Positions 12,597 through 34,924 of a stretch of 64,000 nucleotides of DNA are shown here, piece after piece. This DNA comes from an uncultured Bacteroidales bacterium. Lineage in GTDB: Bacteria; Bacteroidota; Bacteroidia; Bacteroidales; P3. The translations under genes and the position numbers were made by a program. A model generated the notes under the pieces. The model did not search any database, was not told where the DNA came from, and saw only the letters and a program-made list of their open reading frames with translations. The stretch is from the NCBI GenBank assembly GCA_937886715.1, contig CAKZZD010000020.1:20591-84590 (forward strand), given 5' to 3'. How positions within the stretch are numbered: the stretch's first letter is position 1; every line of letters begins with the position of its first letter.

Positions 12597-13664
12597 ATGA
12601 AAAAAGCCCTTATCACTGGCATCACAGGCCAAGACGGCAGCTATCTGGCCGAATTTCTCATCGAAAAAGGCTACGAGGTGCACGGCATCCTGCGTCGCAG
12701 CAGTTCGTTCAACACTGGGCGCATCGAGCACCTGTACCTCGACGAATGGGTGCGCGACATGCACCAGAAGCGCCTGGTGGAGCTGCATTGGGGTGACATG
12801 ACCGATAGCAGCAGTCTCATCCGCATCATCAGCGAGGTGCGGCCCGACGAAATATACAACCTCGCAGCACAGAGCCACGTGAAGGTGAGCTTCGATGTGC
12901 CTGAATTCACGGCCGACACCGATGCCAACGGAGTGCTGCGCCTGCTTGAGGCTGTGCGCATCACGGGCCTCTCCCAGACATGCCGCATCTACCAAGCTTC
13001 TACGTCCGAGCTCTACGGCAAGGTGCAGGAAGTGCCACAGAGCGAGACGACACCCTTCTATCCGCGTTCTCCCTATGGCGTGGCTAAGCTTTACGGCTAC
13101 TGGATGATGAAGAACTACCGCGAAAGCTACAACATGTTCTGCTGCAATGGCATACTCTTCAATCATGAGAGCGAACGTCGCGGCGAGACTTTCGTCACAC
13201 GAAAAATCACGCTAGCCGCCGCCCGCATCTCACAAGGATTCCAGGACAAGCTCTACCTGGGCAACCTCAACGCTCTGCGCGACTGGGGCTACGCTAGGGA
13301 CTATGTGGAGTGCATGTGGCTCATCCTCCAGCAGGAAAAACCCGACGACTACGTCATTGCCACAGGCCAGTACCACACGGTGCGTGAATTCTGCACCCTG
13401 GCCTTCAAGGAAGCAGGTATCGAGCTACGCTGGGAAGGCGAAGGCATCAACGAGAAAGGCATCGAGGCCCAAAGCGGCAAGATCCTCGTCGAGGTCGACC
13501 CCAAATATTTCCGCCCCGCCGAAGTCGACCAGCTCCTCGGCGACCCCTCAAAGGCCAAACGCCTCCTCGGCTGGGACCCGCAGAAGACAAGCTTCGAAGA
13601 TCTCGTGAAGCTCATGGTGCAGCACGACATGAAAAAGGTCCGCCGCCTGCACCACACAGATTAA
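12597..13664 (+). CDS. gmd: GDP-mannose 4,6-dehydratase
   Basis: The sequence reads [47 protein letters not shown]..., with YGVAKLY and NHESERRG. Confidence 0.95.
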
Positions 13665-13666
13665 GG

Positions 13667-14139
13667 CACACAGAAACCACAGAAATCACAGAAAAACCGT
13701 CACCCCCACGACACCAAATGAAATAACATACGAAATTAGGGGTGCGATATACGATGTGTATAAAGAACTTGGGCCTGGACTATTGGAAAGCGTATACGAG
13801 GAGGCATTGTGTTTCGAACTAGAACAACGCGGATTATTTATTGAACGACAAAAACAGGTGCCTGTCATATACAAGGGCTGCAGACTAAAAACAGATTTAC
13901 GACTCGATATTCTTGTTGAGGACAAAGTTATCGTCGAGTTGAAATCTGTAGAGGAAATGAAAAAAGTGTTCGCCAAACAACTTTTGACATACCTTCGCTT
14001 GATGGACAAAAGAATTGGGATTCTGGTGAATTTCAATACTGACGACATCTTGACATCAATCACTCGAATAGCCAATTGATTATTGCTCAACAAAATGATG
14101 CGTCAGCATAATTTCTGTGATTTCCGTGATTTCTGTGTG
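13667..14139. mobile_element. 473-bp inverted-repeat-bounded cassette carrying a GxxExxY gene, filling almost the whole gmd-fcl gap (13665..14180)
   Basis: The left arm is cacacagaaaccacagaaatcacagaaa (13667-13694). The right arm is tttctgtgatttccgtgatttctgtgtg (14112-14139), whose reverse complement matches 26/28. Each arm consists of three CACAGAAAY 9-mers. Confidence 0.5.
13756..14079 (+). CDS. GxxExxY family protein (PD-(D/E)XK-like); conserved N-terminus lacks a canonical start
   Basis: It contains LGPGLLESVYEEAL, DILVEDKVIVELKSV and GILVNFN. In-frame upstream codons encode NEITYEIRGAIYD, which is the usual family N-terminus, but no ATG/GTG/TTG precedes the GTG at 13756. Confidence 0.7.
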   Translation: MYKELGPGLLESVYEEALCFELEQRGLFIERQKQVPVIYKGCRLKTDLRLDILVEDKVIVELKSVEEMKKVFAKQLLTYLRLMDKRIGILVNFNTDDILTSITRIAN

Positions 14140-19863: not shown

Positions 19864-20961
19864 ATGGGGAAACCAATAGTATTAGCATACTACCTCCCAC
19901 AGTTCCACCCCATACCGGAAAATGATCTTTGGTGGGGCAAAGGATTTACCGAATGGACCAACGTCGGCAAGGCCATGCCTCTCTTTCAAGGTCACTACCA
20001 GCCAAAGGTGCCAGCCGACTTAGGCTACTACGACCTCCGTGTTCCAGAGACACGCATCGAACAAGCCCGCTTGGCAGCACAGTATGGCATCCACGGCTTC
20101 TGCTACTGGCATTACTGGTTCGGCAACAACAAGCAGCTTTTGGAACGCCCTTTCAATGAAGTTGTTTCCTCCGGCGAACCCGATTTCCCGTTTTGCTTGG
20201 CTTGGGCAAATGAGTCTTGGAAAGGATTTGACCATGGACTGAGAAACCGCAAAGTTCTCATCGAACAAACCTACGGTGGAGAAAAAGACTACACAGAACA
20301 TTTCTATTCCGTCCTGCCGGCGTTCCTTGACAAACGGTATATCAAACGGAACGGATGCCCTCTTTTCACAATATACTTCCCTCAAAACATCCCCGACTGC
20401 AAAGCATTTGTCGACCTTTGGCAAACCCTTGCCCAAAAGAATGGTCTGCCCGGAATATTCTTCATCGGGCTCTCCCTACACACCGACGAACAAACTCTTG
20501 CCTCCATGCAACAGCTTGGAATGAATGCAATCTCAACCATCCGGCTGGAAGACTTCTACGGCAATCTTAAACACAAGGTATCGCTGGGACAAAAGATACA
20601 CAATAAACTGACAGGAAACGTCTTGCCTCCAAGAGCACTCGAGTACAAAGACACCATGAAGTACTTCTACAACTCCTTGGATGCCACCCCGAGCATCTAT
20701 CCTACCATTATCTCCGGATGGGACCATAGTCCTCGCACAGGACGTGAAGGCCTCATCATGTACAACTACACCCCTGATTTGCTGAAAGAACACGCAACCC
20801 AGATACTGAGCCTCGTTCAGAACAGAAACGACGAGGATTCCTTTGTCTTTCTGAAATCTTGGAATGAATGGGCCGAGGGCAACTACATGGAACCCGACTT
20901 GAAATACGGGCATCAATTCCTACAGGCTCTGAAAGAAGCAATAGATAGTTTTAGCAAATGA
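19864..20961 (+). CDS. WbsX-like (GH99-like domain) polysaccharide biosynthesis protein
   Basis: It contains AYYLPQFHPIPENDLWWGKGFTEWTNV, FCYWHYWF and SWNEWAEGNYMEPD. Confidence 0.75.
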   Translation: MGKPIVLAYYLPQFHPIPENDLWWGKGFTEWTNVGKAMPLFQGHYQPKVPADLGYYDLRVPETRIEQARLAAQYGIHGFCYWHYWFGNNKQLLERPFNEVVSSGEPDFPFCLAWANESWKGFDHGLRNRKVLIEQTYGGEKDYTEHFYSVLPAFLDKRYIKRNGCPLFTIYFPQNIPDCKAFVDLWQTLAQKNGLPGIFFIGLSLHTDEQTLASMQQLGMNAISTIRLEDFYGNLKHKVSLGQKIHNKLTGNVLPPRALEYKDTMKYFYNSLDATPSIYPTIISGWDHSPRTGREGLIMYNYTPDLLKEHATQILSLVQNRNDEDSFVFLKSWNEWAEGNYMEPDLKYGHQFLQALKEAIDSFSK

Positions 20962-21827
20962 ACCCCATCGTCTCCATCGTCCTTCCCTGCTACAACGGCG
21001 CAGGCTTTCTTGCGCAATCCATCAACAGCGTCGTTGCTCAGACTTTCAACGACTGGGAACTCATCATTGTCAACGACTGCTCGACAGACAACTCGCTAGA
21101 GATCATGCAGCGCTACGCCAATGAGGATATCCGCATTCGCATTGTCAACAACGAACATAACCTCAAACTACCTGGAGCATTGAATAGAGGCTTCCAAGAA
21201 GCCAAAGGCAAATACCTCACATGGACATCGCACGATAACCGCATGGCATCCACCATGCTCGAAGAGTTCGTGTCCTACCTCAATGCCAACCCCGACAAGG
21301 GGCTCGTCACCGCCTGCTATGCCGCCTTCAGCCTCGCGACGGGCGAACAGCTCTACGAAGTCCATCACCCAGACCCTCAGATACACCTCCCGCTCTACAA
21401 CTGCGTCTGCTATGCCTTCATGTACCGCCGCGAGGTACTGGAAACCGTGGGCGACTACGACACCACCCTTTTCCTCGTCGAGGACTACGACTACTGGGTG
21501 CGCATCTGGCTCAAGTTCCCCATCGGCAAGATATACAAAGTGCTCTACTACACCGGCGTCGGCGACGATACGCTGACTCTCTCCCGCAAAAAGGATATAG
21601 CAAAGAAACTGGTGGAAATGCGCCTGCGCTATTTCGACAGCTTCAACGATGCCCTTGCTCTCCATCCGGATCTCCAAAGGAAACTATACAACAGCATCGC
21701 CGACAACCTTCAAGGCCTTCCACGTCTACGATTCACGCTCCAAAGAGGCCTTAAATACAGCGCCTCTTACTGGCTGTTCTATCGTCCAAAGAAGACTCTA
21801 AAGAAACTAAAACATAAACTCAAATAG
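20958..21827 (+). CDS. Glycosyltransferase family 2
   Basis: It contains VSIVLPCYNGAGFLAQSINSVVAQTFNDWELIIVNDCSTDNS. There is an ATGA overlap with the upstream gene. Confidence 0.85.
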   Translation: MNPIVSIVLPCYNGAGFLAQSINSVVAQTFNDWELIIVNDCSTDNSLEIMQRYANEDIRIRIVNNEHNLKLPGALNRGFQEAKGKYLTWTSHDNRMASTMLEEFVSYLNANPDKGLVTACYAAFSLATGEQLYEVHHPDPQIHLPLYNCVCYAFMYRREVLETVGDYDTTLFLVEDYDYWVRIWLKFPIGKIYKVLYYTGVGDDTLTLSRKKDIAKKLVEMRLRYFDSFNDALALHPDLQRKLYNSIADNLQGLPRLRFTLQRGLKYSASYWLFYRPKKTLKKLKHKLK

Positions 21828-21838
21828 ACATTCTTTTT

Positions 21839-22281
21839 CTCAATCAGATTTTAAAAGAATCATGGATAAGGACTTGATATATACTATTATTGGATGCGTA
21901 CTGAAAGTTCATTCAAAATTAGGTCCGGGCCTTTTAGAGTCTGTTTACCAAAAAGCATTGATGATTGAATTGGACAATGAATGCCTTTCGGCAGAAGAGG
22001 AAGTGCCATTAGAAATAATGTATGATGGAAATAACCTCGGATTAGGTTTTAGAATGGACATCTTGGTTGAAGGCTAGATTATCCTTGAACTAAAATCCGT
22101 ATCAGCTTTAGAAAAAGTACACTTCAAGCAGTTACAAACATACCTGAAACTATCGAACAAACCTTTGGGATACCTAATAAATTTCAACGTGGACAAAATG
22201 GTTATCGGCTCAAGCATCCATCGCATCACAAACATCAACTATCAAGAATAACTCTTTTATAATCTTTTACAATCTGATTGA
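21839..22281. mobile_element. 443-bp inverted-repeat-bounded cassette carrying a GxxExxY pseudogene
   Basis: The left arm is ctcaatcagattttaaaagaatc (21839-21861). The right arm is tcttttataatcttttacaatctgattga (22253-22281), whose reverse complement tcaatcagattgtaaaagatt matches 19/21. Confidence 0.5.
21862..22251 (+). pseudogene. GxxExxY family gene interrupted by an in-frame TAG
   Basis: The sequence MDKDLIYTIIGCVLKVHSKLGPGLLESVYQKAL...DILVEG is followed by TAG at 22075-22077. The same frame then continues IILELKSVSALEKVHFKQLQTYLKLSNKPLGYLINFN... to TAA at 22249-22251. Confidence 0.75.
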
Positions 22282-22292
22282 AATTTAAGTCC

Positions 22293-23306
22293 ATGCCGAG
22301 AGTTACCGTGCTGATGCCGACATATAACGTAGCCCCTTGGGTCGAGGAATCCATCCGCAGTGTCCTTAACCAGACCTACCACGACTTTGAGTTATTGGTG
22401 GTCGACGACGCGTCGACGGATCAAACCCTTGATGTGGTAAGAGCCATCCGCGACCCCCGCATCCGCATCGCCTCGTTTCCAAACAACGTAGGCCTGGCCG
22501 ACAACCTCAATCGAGGCCTTGATATCATCGACACCGAGCTCGTGGCCCGTATGGACGGCGACGACATCGCCGAACCCGACTGGCTGGAAACAGGCATACG
22601 CATCCTCGACACCCACCCCGAAGTAGGTATCTGCAGTTTCGGCTTTCAGTTCTTCGGTGCCAAAACTTCTGTGGTCCGATTCCCTGAGCTCCACGAGGAC
22701 TCCAAAGCCCAGATGCTCTTCGGATGCACCGTCATTGTGCCGGTGTTCCGCAAATCCGTCTTCACCGACAACCACCTCCACTACAGCACCGAAGCCTTCC
22801 CGGCCGAGGATTATATGATGTGGGCCAATGCCTACCCCTTGACGCAGATCTACAACGTCCAGCGCACCCTCTTCCACTACCGCACCCACGCCACCCAGAT
22901 CTCCACCTCGCGACGCGAAGCCCAGATCGTGAAAAGCAACGAGGTGCGCCTCAAGATGCTCCAATGGCTCAACCCCGCCTTCACAAACGAAGAAAAGCAG
23001 TACTTCCTCGACAACTTCGTCCCTTGCAAAATCGATTCCAGGAAAGACATCGCCACCCTCACGGCCTTCGCTCAACTCCTCATCGACCGCAACACCCCCG
23101 GCAACTACTCCGGCGATGCACTGCGCCGCAAGTTCAAATCCCATATCGCCTATGGTGCCTTGGACTATGTGGAACACAGATACTTTCCCTCTCAGTACAC
23201 CCCCTTCGCCCTCATCCGACTCCTCGCCAGCGGCCTCTACCCTACCCTGCCAAAGAAAAACCGCCGCAAACTGATAGCCAAATGTCTGCTGCTCAAAAGA
23301 AAATAA
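22293..23306 (+). CDS. Glycosyltransferase family 2
   Basis: It contains VTVLMPTYNVAPWVEESIRSVLNQTYHDFELLVVDDASTD and ARMDGDD. The track start at 22278 is TTG and lies inside the repeat; the ATG is at 22293. Confidence 0.85.
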   Translation: MPRVTVLMPTYNVAPWVEESIRSVLNQTYHDFELLVVDDASTDQTLDVVRAIRDPRIRIASFPNNVGLADNLNRGLDIIDTELVARMDGDDIAEPDWLETGIRILDTHPEVGICSFGFQFFGAKTSVVRFPELHEDSKAQMLFGCTVIVPVFRKSVFTDNHLHYSTEAFPAEDYMMWANAYPLTQIYNVQRTLFHYRTHATQISTSRREAQIVKSNEVRLKMLQWLNPAFTNEEKQYFLDNFVPCKIDSRKDIATLTAFAQLLIDRNTPGNYSGDALRRKFKSHIAYGALDYVEHRYFPSQYTPFALIRLLASGLYPTLPKKNRRKLIAKCLLLKRK

Positions 23307-23314
23307 TATAAAAT

Positions 23315-23413
23315 CTCAATCAAATTGTAAAAGATTTAAAAAGAAAAAACTATTTTTTTACATCCTATTAGCAATAGTAACCATCTTTTATAATCTTTTA
23401 AAATCTGATTGAG
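23315..23413. repeat. Empty copy of the 21.8-kb cassette inverted repeat (about 30-nt arms, 39-nt loop)
   Basis: ctcaatcaaattgtaaaagatttaaaaaga ... tcttttataatcttttaaaatctgattgag. The right arm is almost identical to 22253-22281 and 34822-34851. Confidence 0.85.
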
Positions 23414-23422
23414 ACAAACAAT

Positions 23423-24196
23423 ATGATTGACTTCCGCCGCAAACTCCACAACCTCACCCACCCCATCCTGGGACGCATACTGATGCTCCATCGTGTGGTA
23501 GAACACCGCAACGAAGGCGACAACCGTGAGCTGGAGATTACGCCCGACTTCTTGAAACAAACTATTGAGACCTACCGTCAGCAAGGCCATCGTTTCGTCT
23601 CCATCGACGAGGCCTGCGACATCATTGCCAAAGGTCGCACCGACCAACCTTTCGTCTGCCTCACTTTCGACGACGGCTATCAGGACAACTACGACATTGC
23701 CTACCCCATCCTGAAACAGAAACAAGTACCCTTCGCCATCTACGTCACCACTGGCTTCATCGACAACCGCCTCCCCATGTGGTGGTACCGCTGCGAAAGC
23801 CGAGAGCAGTGCCAAACTTGTTTGAGTAATGCCGAGGTGCAGCAGCGTGAGCGTAGCTACCCTGGCGAACAACTTGGAATCAGTTCCGAATCTCTCAAAG
23901 CCTTAGATGCCGACCCCCTCTGCACCATCGGTGCCCACACGGTCAGCCACCCAAAGCTTGACATTCTCTCGCTCAATGACCAGCAGAAAGAAATCACACA
24001 ATCCCGCCAGGAACTGGAGGCCCTCCTCGACCATCCCATTCTCCACTTCTCCTATCCCCATGGTGCCTACAACTCCGACACTTTGGCCATCATCAGCCGT
24101 CAGCCATTCCATTCCTCCCTCTGTGCTTGGGGAGGCACCCTACGTCGCGGTGCCAATCCTTTGACGCTACCTCGCATCGAACTTCGCCAACCTTAA
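23423..24196 (+). CDS. Polysaccharide deacetylase (CE4) family protein
   Basis: It contains VCLTFDDGYQDNY, GAHTVSHPKL and FSYPHG. Confidence 0.8.
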   Translation: MIDFRRKLHNLTHPILGRILMLHRVVEHRNEGDNRELEITPDFLKQTIETYRQQGHRFVSIDEACDIIAKGRTDQPFVCLTFDDGYQDNYDIAYPILKQKQVPFAIYVTTGFIDNRLPMWWYRCESREQCQTCLSNAEVQQRERSYPGEQLGISSESLKALDADPLCTIGAHTVSHPKLDILSLNDQQKEITQSRQELEALLDHPILHFSYPHGAYNSDTLAIISRQPFHSSLCAWGGTLRRGANPLTLPRIELRQP

Positions 24197-34797: not shown

Positions 34798-34851
34798 CTA
34801 ATCAGATTTATCACAAATGATTCTTTTATAATCTTTTACAATTTGATTGAG
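34798..34851. repeat. Third copy of the cassette inverted repeat (full right arm, stub of left arm); a further degenerate right arm lies at 34889-34908
   Basis: ctaatcagattt ... tcttttataatcttttacaatttgattgag, and further on tcttttagttctgattgtg. Confidence 0.8.
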
Positions 34852-34924
34852 AAGAAACAAAACGACTCAGAATGACTTCTTCGTGCTTTCTTCCCTATTC
34901 TTTTAGTTCTGATTGTGATATAGA

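Follow-up and report, generated by a model that had tools for sequence, protein, structure and literature searches.

The window analyzed here is the whole 64,000-nucleotide stretch C20:20591-84590 from the 2.50-Mb draft genome (55% GC) of an uncultured rumen Bacteroidales bacterium. An operon with further genes for a WbsX-type transferase and a polysaccharide deacetylase contains a 444-bp AT-rich block (21839-22282) wedged between two family-2 glycosyltransferase (GT2) genes, with a GC content of 35-38% versus 54-58% in the flanking genes. The parts of the window described below lie on the forward strand. The upstream gene, GT2a (20958-21827; PF00535, E=1e-33), ends in a TAG at 21825-21827, 11 nt 5′ of the block and within DNA that is without counterpart at the empty site of a relative, while the ATG of the downstream gene, GT2b (22293-23306; PF00535, E=2e-31), follows 10 nt beyond the block. 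Between these boundaries lie a left arm of two 10-nt units, CTCAATCAGA and TTTTAAAAGA (21839-21858), an open reading frame (ORF) of the GxxExxY/PDDEXK_3 family with 129 codons and a stop (21862-22251), and a right arm of three 10-nt units, TCTTTTATAA, TCTTTTACAA, and TCTGATTGAA (22253-22282). The packing is tight, with the start codon 3 nt past the left arm and the stop codon 1 nt before the right arm. The arms constitute an inverted repeat with a 19-nt core (21840-21858/22263-22281) that is complementary at 18 of its 19 positions (95%); allowing up to three mismatches, this 19-mer occurs five times in the window versus an expectation of 0.00 from shuffles. The flanking inverted-repeat score of the cassette is 16, a value against which none of 400 random 390-nt genome intervals reached even 12 (maximum 11).

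The ORF reads MDKDL...DILVEG*IILELKSV...NYQE*, i.e., its frame is intact apart from an in-frame TAG at codon 72 (22075-22077), which falls between the catalytic D66 and E76-x-K78. According to the first-pass annotation, this block is a GxxExxY cassette between inverted repeats, the second of its design after one at 13.7 kb, with a frame spoiled by the amber codon alone; both points hold. Bacteroidetes-type promoter words (TAnnTTTG) have no match by eye in the right arm, and the whole is probably a promoter-less unit of ~0.45 kb in which one nuclease gene is tightly bounded by inverted arrays of 10-nt units. The number of these units varies: a third left-arm unit is present in the orthologues and in X13, one of the public gut-metagenome runs that were examined as assembled contigs, where a 12-nt insertion (TTTAAAAGAATC) at 21849 creates a polymorphism of two versus three units.

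The product of the ORF is recognized by the models TIGR04256 (GxxExxY; E=8e-41, 139.1 bits against a cut-off of 35) and PF13366 (PDDEXK_3; E=4e-39, 134.1 bits against a cut-off of 22). The motifs G23/E26/Y29, D66, E76, K78, Q90, and Y94 are all encoded, and in an alignment of 34 relatives G21, E26, Y29, D66, E76, K78, Q90, and Y94 are invariant. From this alignment, AlphaFold2 gave a very confident model (pLDDT 96.5), whose best structure match in the PDB is the Cas4 nuclease SSO0001 (E=4e-4; TM score 0.58 over the query; 24-27% identity), followed by lambda exonuclease, ACE1 (an Argonaute-associated member of the Cas4 family), Bax1, and RecE. Hidden Markov models of Cas4 also match the protein weakly. 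A search of the PDB by sequence gave no informative hit, the top one (E=0.06) being a cystatin with no relation to the protein. Given the predicted fold and the D…ExK…QxxxY motifs, the protein is predicted to be a minimal RecB/Cas4-like PD-(D/E)XK nuclease core devoid of the Fe-S module. It is not a Cas4 itself, having only 129 amino acids, no Cys cluster, and no cas neighbors at the locus; nor did a domain search of the product find a transposase domain.

The amber codon and selection on gene and arms

The amber codon is a real and recent CAG-to-TAG nonsense allele, which is derived and still varies between strains. The T at 22075 recurs in contigs of runs X3, X6, and X12, the last being an RNA run, while a C, giving an intact CAG (Gln) codon, is found in contigs of X1, X8, X13, and X16. 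An exact-product look-up retrieved the truncated 71-aa product from several public assemblies, among them a contig from a bioreactor metagenome that matches the window exactly and may itself be the window's source, and an independent gut-metagenome contig that is 99.6% identical; the full-length 129-aa product was retrieved from two Logan contigs. As the intact CAG is at least as common as TAG in the public runs, the TAG is best seen as a recent and unfixed loss. In relatives the position of codon 72 is variable, with E, Q, or T. The truncation after D66 takes away the downstream ExK and QxxxY motifs, so that the full D...ExK...QxxxY set is present in one polypeptide in the CAG allele and absent in the TAG allele, and the window copy is therefore newly dead. 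One lone stop within an otherwise perfect frame might also suggest an assembly error, or a gene left intact by an altered code or a suppressor tRNA that reads through the TAG. However, the recurrence of the T allele in independent runs and assemblies, with the C allele elsewhere, goes against this; Aragorn found no tRNA with a CUA anticodon among 39 tRNAs, and TAG serves GT2a as an ordinary stop 35 nt upstream. This explanation is refuted as far as sequence data allow, and we give it next to no credence.

In an orthologue search covering 40 relatives and species-representative genomes, the ORF shows proportions of nonsynonymous differences (pN) of 0.12-0.17 versus synonymous ones (pS) of 0.71-0.87, at which synonymous sites are saturated, and dN/dS ratios of 0.06-0.10, the single unsaturated pair giving 0.097. 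The arms are conserved alongside: against orthologous cassettes with pS of ~0.8 the left arm retains 18-20 of 20 and the right arm 27-28 of 30 positions (90-100% identity). Both gene and arms are thus strongly constrained across the lineage. The first-pass annotation had taken the TAG as genuine, the arms as very well preserved, and both GxxExxY copies of the window as compromised (the one at 13.7 kb being start-less), and in all this it was right. Its further conclusion, that the repeats or an RNA structure and not the protein are under selection, is contradicted by the constraint on protein as well as arms and by the very recent origin of the TAG: the ORF has low dN/dS in orthologues and is constrained like the arms rather than relaxed, the catalytic residues are invariant in the 34 relatives, the CAG allele is no rarer than the TAG allele, and the mismatches between arms show no enrichment of sense-strand G·U pairs (11 G·U versus 24 A·C).

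Turnover and decay of the cassettes

Cassettes with open frames occupy the same GT2a|GT2b junction in the relatives G002, G013, L015, G043, and G071. A relative in which GT2a directly abuts GT2b, the arrangement that had been anticipated from the window, was found in G010, which has both GT2 genes and no cassette; here the GT2a frame ends at a TGA 13 nt inside GT2b (…AAGCTATGCCACGCCTGA…). From this overlap it follows that the insertion split two overlapping cistrons and gave GT2a a new stop. The cassette went in precisely where the stop of one GT2 gene and the start of the other had overlapped, and it reads in the sense direction. The same cassette lineage is seen at other junctions in L017, L018, and G056, making at least three junctions in all.

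The history of the cassette departs from that of its flanks. Trees of GT2b, for which four outgroups without a cassette served as the root, place the empty G010 as the sister of L015, a cassette-bearer, with 100/100 support, and an approximately unbiased (AU) test of a single clade of cassette-bearers, a grouping chosen after the first tree had been inspected, rejects it on DNA (p=0.003) but not on protein (p=0.08). Between G002 and G043/G071 the flanks are 92-93% identical in nucleotides (pS 0.18-0.23), whereas the cassettes are only 64-65% identical (pS 0.92-0.94) and differ in their inner arm units; between G002 and G013 the relation is reversed, with cassettes 93% identical (pS 0.23) and flanks 78-83% (pS 0.43-0.55). 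These comparisons suggest that the cassette has a history separate from that of its flanks, with a presence/absence polymorphism and different lineages at one junction. The discordance with the flanks together with the nested empty state points to at least two events of gain, loss, or replacement at the GT2a|GT2b junction.

The arms belong to a wider, gene-linked family of repeats. Each of the genome's four GxxExxY genes lies between inverted arrays of 9-10-nt units, and the units differ between paralogues. A survey of 36 GxxExxY loci, drawn from the genus and from three further Bacteroidota, gave an inverted-repeat score of at least 12 for 27 loci versus none of the 400 random intervals, and arm similarity follows protein identity (Mantel r=0.74, a value reached in 0 of 5000 permutations). 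The arms of orthologues at least 68% identical in protein all begin with CTCAATCAGA, those of proteins with 54-57% identity have the word TCTAACCGAAC…, and those at ~50% identity are built of GAAATCTTGG units. Accordingly, gene and arms appear to form one unit in which the arm type tracks the protein clade. The arms of the two cassettes in the window had been called unrelated in sequence; it is true that their units differ, but both types are made up of units of 9-10 nt that have a ...CAGA... word as their basis (CTCAATCAGA versus CACAGAAAC), and their likeness scales with that of the proteins. The gene is co-directional with both neighbors at ~31 of the 36 loci, as expected for promoter-less inserts living on operon transcription.

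Arms of the family found around the cassette (type A) also occur as gene-less hairpins. One of these, with 3+3 units around a 39-nt loop (23315-23413), lies 8 nt past the GT2b stop and 9 nt before the ATG of the polysaccharide deacetylase, so that GT2b is bracketed by type-A arms, on its 5′ side by the cassette and on its 3′ side by the solo hairpin, both here and in G002, G043, and G071. GT2b thereby resembles an arm-delimited module (22293-23413). A derivation of the loop of this hairpin from a cassette was considered; as its matches are short and ambiguous, it is not claimed. A second site (34798-34851), compared with full cassettes using a gap-tolerant pairwise aligner, comprises a left arm that is only partial and, after 12 nt, a complete right arm. 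Its 12-nt loop and right arm are identical at 39 of 43 positions to the last 43 nt of the G002 cassette, including the last ORF codons, and in L017 and L018 the same junction is filled by a full orthologous cassette. Since it keeps the last codons of the ORF, this hairpin is most readily understood as an internally deleted cassette. It is followed by a second, degenerate arm of an A′ subtype, TTCTTTTAGTTCTGATTGTGA (34898-34918), which lies 6 nt before the next ATG and is shared with L018. Besides these two sites, gene-less type-A arms are present at five other loci of the genome. The hairpins follow a regular geometry: 2-25 nt separate the upstream stop from the left arm, and 9-15 nt lie between the end of the right arm and the following ATG.

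Decay is also seen in cassettes that retain their gene. The sister cassette (13667-14139) has 28-nt arms of CACAGAAAY units around a start-less GxxExxY ORF with 47% amino acid identity to that of the cassette at 21839-22282. No in-frame ATG, GTG, or TTG precedes the conserved N-terminal helix in this copy (13633-14079), while its closest paralogue (C2:160775; 71% amino acid identity) has an ATG at the equivalent place. The L018 cassette is frameshifted, and about 5 of the 105 GxxExxY copies of the genus carry in-frame stops. Two routes of decay are thus seen in the cassettes, namely point mutations and internal deletions that leave a gene-less hairpin.

Two further kinds of arrangement involve type-A arms. 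A 468-bp element (C19:100881-101348) has such arms in flipped order around a non-coding interior full of TTTTCGTG-type unit arrays, and has the look of accumulated remains of nested or decayed cassettes. In G013, clusters of three to seven type-A arms, which lie within a few hundred bases at a spacing of ~70-75 nt (G013:C10:90401-90804 and G013:C74:38204-38405), suggest local amplification comparable to BIME clusters.

Possible roles of the arms and the predicted nuclease

Taking these strands together, the block is probably a GxxExxY nuclease cassette with repeat arms, a copy in decay that has a history of its own and was inserted at a GT2|GT2 junction. The mirrored arrangement of two to three copies of 9-11-nt units, each about one helical turn long, is more suggestive of protein-binding sites than of a bare stem, and the conservation of the arms in sequence and not merely in pairing fits protein recognition better than a bare RNA stem. 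With some hesitation, and thinking the contrary rather easier to believe, we propose that the nuclease might act on its own arms, a step modeled on the Ssn nucleases with their NTS repeats and on RAYT with REPs. It would recognize its arm units either as iterons spaced by one helical turn or in the form of a single-strand hairpin. Cuts at the arms would then favor recombination or gene conversion, by which cassette and hairpins would be spread or maintained. Expression of the cassette would depend on read-through from the host operon, and polar damage to that operon would be limited by the pairing of the arms and by their fixed distances from the neighboring stop and start codons.

A bolder form of this proposal, which we hold to be unlikely, views the GxxExxY cassettes as autonomous 'junction-homing' elements, each with a Cas4-like nuclease of 129 aa that would recognize the phased 10-nt units making up its arms. 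The nuclease would cut the element or a matching single-stranded DNA hairpin, and repair would copy the cassette into stop/start junctions of operons, where the inserted DNA would supply the upstream gene with a new stop and the arm stem would keep the two cistrons coupled. Owing to this new stop and coupling stem, insertions would be nearly harmless and could persist after the death of the nuclease gene, leaving gene-less hairpins behind, and lineages would replace each other at the junction.

Several observations weigh against a self-serving nuclease cassette. At four filled sites, including those of the window, G002, and L015, no target-site duplication was seen by eye in comparison with the empty G010. 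Recent mobility is likewise not apparent in public assemblies, in which proteins identical to those of the G002, G013, and G043 cassettes occur only in the same neighborhood (for the G043 type, all 122 blocks of the identical-protein look-up), and the discordance with the flanks could equally reflect old allelic lineages that were kept while recombination homogenized the flanks. The presence of the type-A arm word in 6 of 6 genus genomes that bear an orthologue versus 8 of 55 others (Fisher p=5e-5) is in favor of a gene-arm unit, but this association is uncorrected for phylogeny; and with ~11 type-A arms at 7 loci per genome, the numbers are far below those of REP or NTS. The same arm design also surrounds an unrelated gene of this genome: in a 481-bp cassette (C6:21535-22015), inverted arrays of AATTCGT-type units enclose a gene for a 120-aa four-helix bundle of the PF05635 23S_rRNA_IVP/TIGR02436 family, which was first found within 23S rRNA intervening sequences (IVSs). 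There are, moreover, several abundant gene-less hairpin families in which tandem units (CTGTTGTACGA twice, CAACTCCTACC, CCCCTCCAACC; tens of copies each) are mirrored across a short loop, for instance at C9:22941-22991, C17:14016-14071, and C19:63317-63424. Given the PF05635 cargo and these hairpin families, such arms could be read by a factor of the host instead of by the cargo protein. Finally, the function of PF13366 is entered as 'Unknown' in the one survey that lists it (PMC3424549), and our own literature search retrieved nothing on the function of GxxExxY/PF13366 and no mention of TIGR04256 or TIGR02436.

An alternative places selection on the RNA: the arm pair would be kept as an intercistronic stem, cut by RNase III as in the 23S rRNA IVSs or coupling the split cistrons by holding stop and start together, and the ORF would be a dispensable passenger. 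Conservation of the arms far beyond that of synonymous sites, the persistence of gene-less hairpins with the same geometry toward stop and ATG, and the likeness to the Coxiella IVS in size, low GC, variable tandem units, and decaying ORF are in its favor. The minimum-free-energy fold of 21815-22300 closes on both arms with a predicted stem of 19-30 bp, the genome encodes an RNase III with a double-stranded RNA-binding domain (rnc), and RNA-derived contigs of X12 cross both boundaries of the cassette, the one with the GT2a tail and the one with GT2b. However, a passenger ORF is hard to square with a dN/dS of ~0.1 and an invariant active site, and a mere stem with arms whose sequence itself, beyond pairing, is kept across species and whose type co-diverges with the protein. 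The mismatches over 31 arm pairs comprise 46 of transversion type, 24 A·C, and 11 sense-strand G·U, so that the wobble test, over loci that are not independent, is significant in the opposite direction (11 versus 24, p=0.04). Further, the inner units carry uncompensated T/G differences, the fold of the whole cassette is no more stable than those of shuffles (z=-1.5), and 21000-24000 has no Rfam match at the E-value threshold. We therefore consider selection on an RNA stem alone improbable as the explanation of the cassette, with an RNA role being possible for the outermost, always-paired unit.

It could be, instead, that the host is served, with nuclease and dispersed hairpins being kept for breaks and recombination at the junctions of surface-glycan modules, which would speed the shuffling of glycosyltransferase modules, or for an SsnA-like modulation of DNA uptake. 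The position of 5 of the genome's 11 type-A arms at module junctions of this one polysaccharide locus, the bracketing of GT2b by arms in several species, purifying selection on a gene that stays at one site, and the precedent of Ssn/NTS speak for such a role. The locus is, in addition, mosaic between strains, with loci L055 and L058 included in the comparison: the X12 contig turns G002-like upstream of 21738, L055 has an extra GT2 gene ahead of GT2a, and in G013-type strains a 550-aa gene is fused to the last ~130 nt of GT2a. An apparently different upstream gene in L062 proved to be a truncated call of the same 550-aa gene. These mosaic breakpoints, however, fall inside the GT2a tail and not at the arms, and other arm copies adjoin unrelated housekeeping genes. 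Repeated loss of the gene, its absence in any GxxExxY form from 20 of 61 genus genomes, and the spread of a nonsense allele at no visible cost are equally awkward for a host function, and we judge it quite unlikely.

The descriptive parts of this account are solid, and the element is of a widespread and so far undescribed nuclease-plus-repeat kind. PF13366/GxxExxY is a very large family, and the cassette is among the smallest gene-plus-repeat units that behave like an insertion. In related rumen bacteria the locus displays all states, namely an intact gene, a nonsense allele within the same species, a frameshifted copy, a hairpin with the ORF tail, and a clean empty site, and cassettes turn over at one junction while the flanks stay similar. 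Together, these states and this turnover make it testable whether the nuclease serves its own repeats, whether the hairpins are its remains, and whether the arms protect operon expression. Should the cassettes indeed copy themselves into stop/start junctions, a locus with intact, nonsense, empty, and solo-hairpin alleles would be a ready-made natural test system. On a practical note, cassettes and hairpins mark module junctions in the surface-glycan loci of gut Bacteroidales and disrupt gene calls, as with the 71-aa 'gene' here.

Comparison with known systems

Our search of the literature found GxxExxY cassettes described nowhere; several known systems nevertheless share parts of their organization. 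Ssn nucleases are flanked by hairpin repeats (NTS/SRM), which Ssn cuts as single-stranded DNA (Chenal et al., 2025, PMC11893778). Like the cassette, the Ssn/NTS system combines a small single-domain nuclease gene with its own hairpin repeat on both sides, which is also dispersed, and repeat variants match protein variants. In contrast, Ssn has the GIY-YIG fold (cd10448), to which the PD-(D/E)XK protein of the cassette has no match, NTS number hundreds per genome versus ~11 arms here, and the arms of the cassette are multi-unit arrays pairing across the gene; moreover, cleavage of single-stranded DNA by Ssn has been demonstrated, whereas the GxxExxY protein is a nuclease by prediction. In REPtrons (PMC3333891, PMC3733652), as here, a gene lies between inverted copies of the repeat family that it is presumed to serve; further copies of the repeat, without a gene, occur elsewhere in the genome, the repeats form intergenic hairpins, and RAYT genes can be lost precisely while the repeats stay (PMC3333891). 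RAYT is, however, an HUH Y1 transposase, while the cassette carries PF13366 only; REPs have a GTAG/CGTC tag and hundreds of copies; and REPtrons sit at one fixed locus, unlike the cassette lineage with its filled and empty alleles at no fewer than three junctions.

The ORF-bearing 23S rRNA IVSs of Coxiella and Leptospira (PMC4990558) share with the cassette a size of ~430-440 nt, low GC, and one ORF of ~14 kDa in the loop of a stem formed by the ends. That of Coxiella is a low-GC sequence of 428 nt with a decaying ORF and variable-number tandem heptamers by the start codon (PMC4990558); these heptamers (GACAGAT) vary between two and three copies, just as the left-arm units do between the window and X13. 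The ORF likewise decays in some strains, and the genome studied here has the same design with an IVS-type protein (PF05635). The differences are that the cassette lies in an mRNA operon between GT2 genes and not in helix 25 or 45 of the 23S rRNA, that its cargo is a predicted nuclease under purifying selection and not an S23p four-helix bundle, and that its stem is a predicted one. Integron cassettes, with a single attC hairpin 3′ of a promoter-less ORF in an array next to intI, differ in their organization, as the two arms here pair across the ORF and neither is a hairpin alone, and the neighbors are glycosyltransferases. Terminal inverted repeat (TIR) transposons and miniature inverted-repeat transposable elements with multi-site ends, such as those of Mu and Tn7, have inverted ends made of several phased protein-binding units. 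With these the cassette has in common the multi-unit inverted ends, derivatives that have lost the gene by internal deletion, and the occurrence of filled as well as empty sites, while differing in being far smaller and in having neither a DDE or serine/tyrosine recombinase nor a target-site duplication. Given that it departs from Ssn/NTS, REPtron/RAYT, and ORF-bearing 23S rRNA IVSs in the defining feature of each, being neither GIY-YIG nor HUH nor located in rRNA, the GxxExxY cassette is an analogue of these systems and not a member of any of them.

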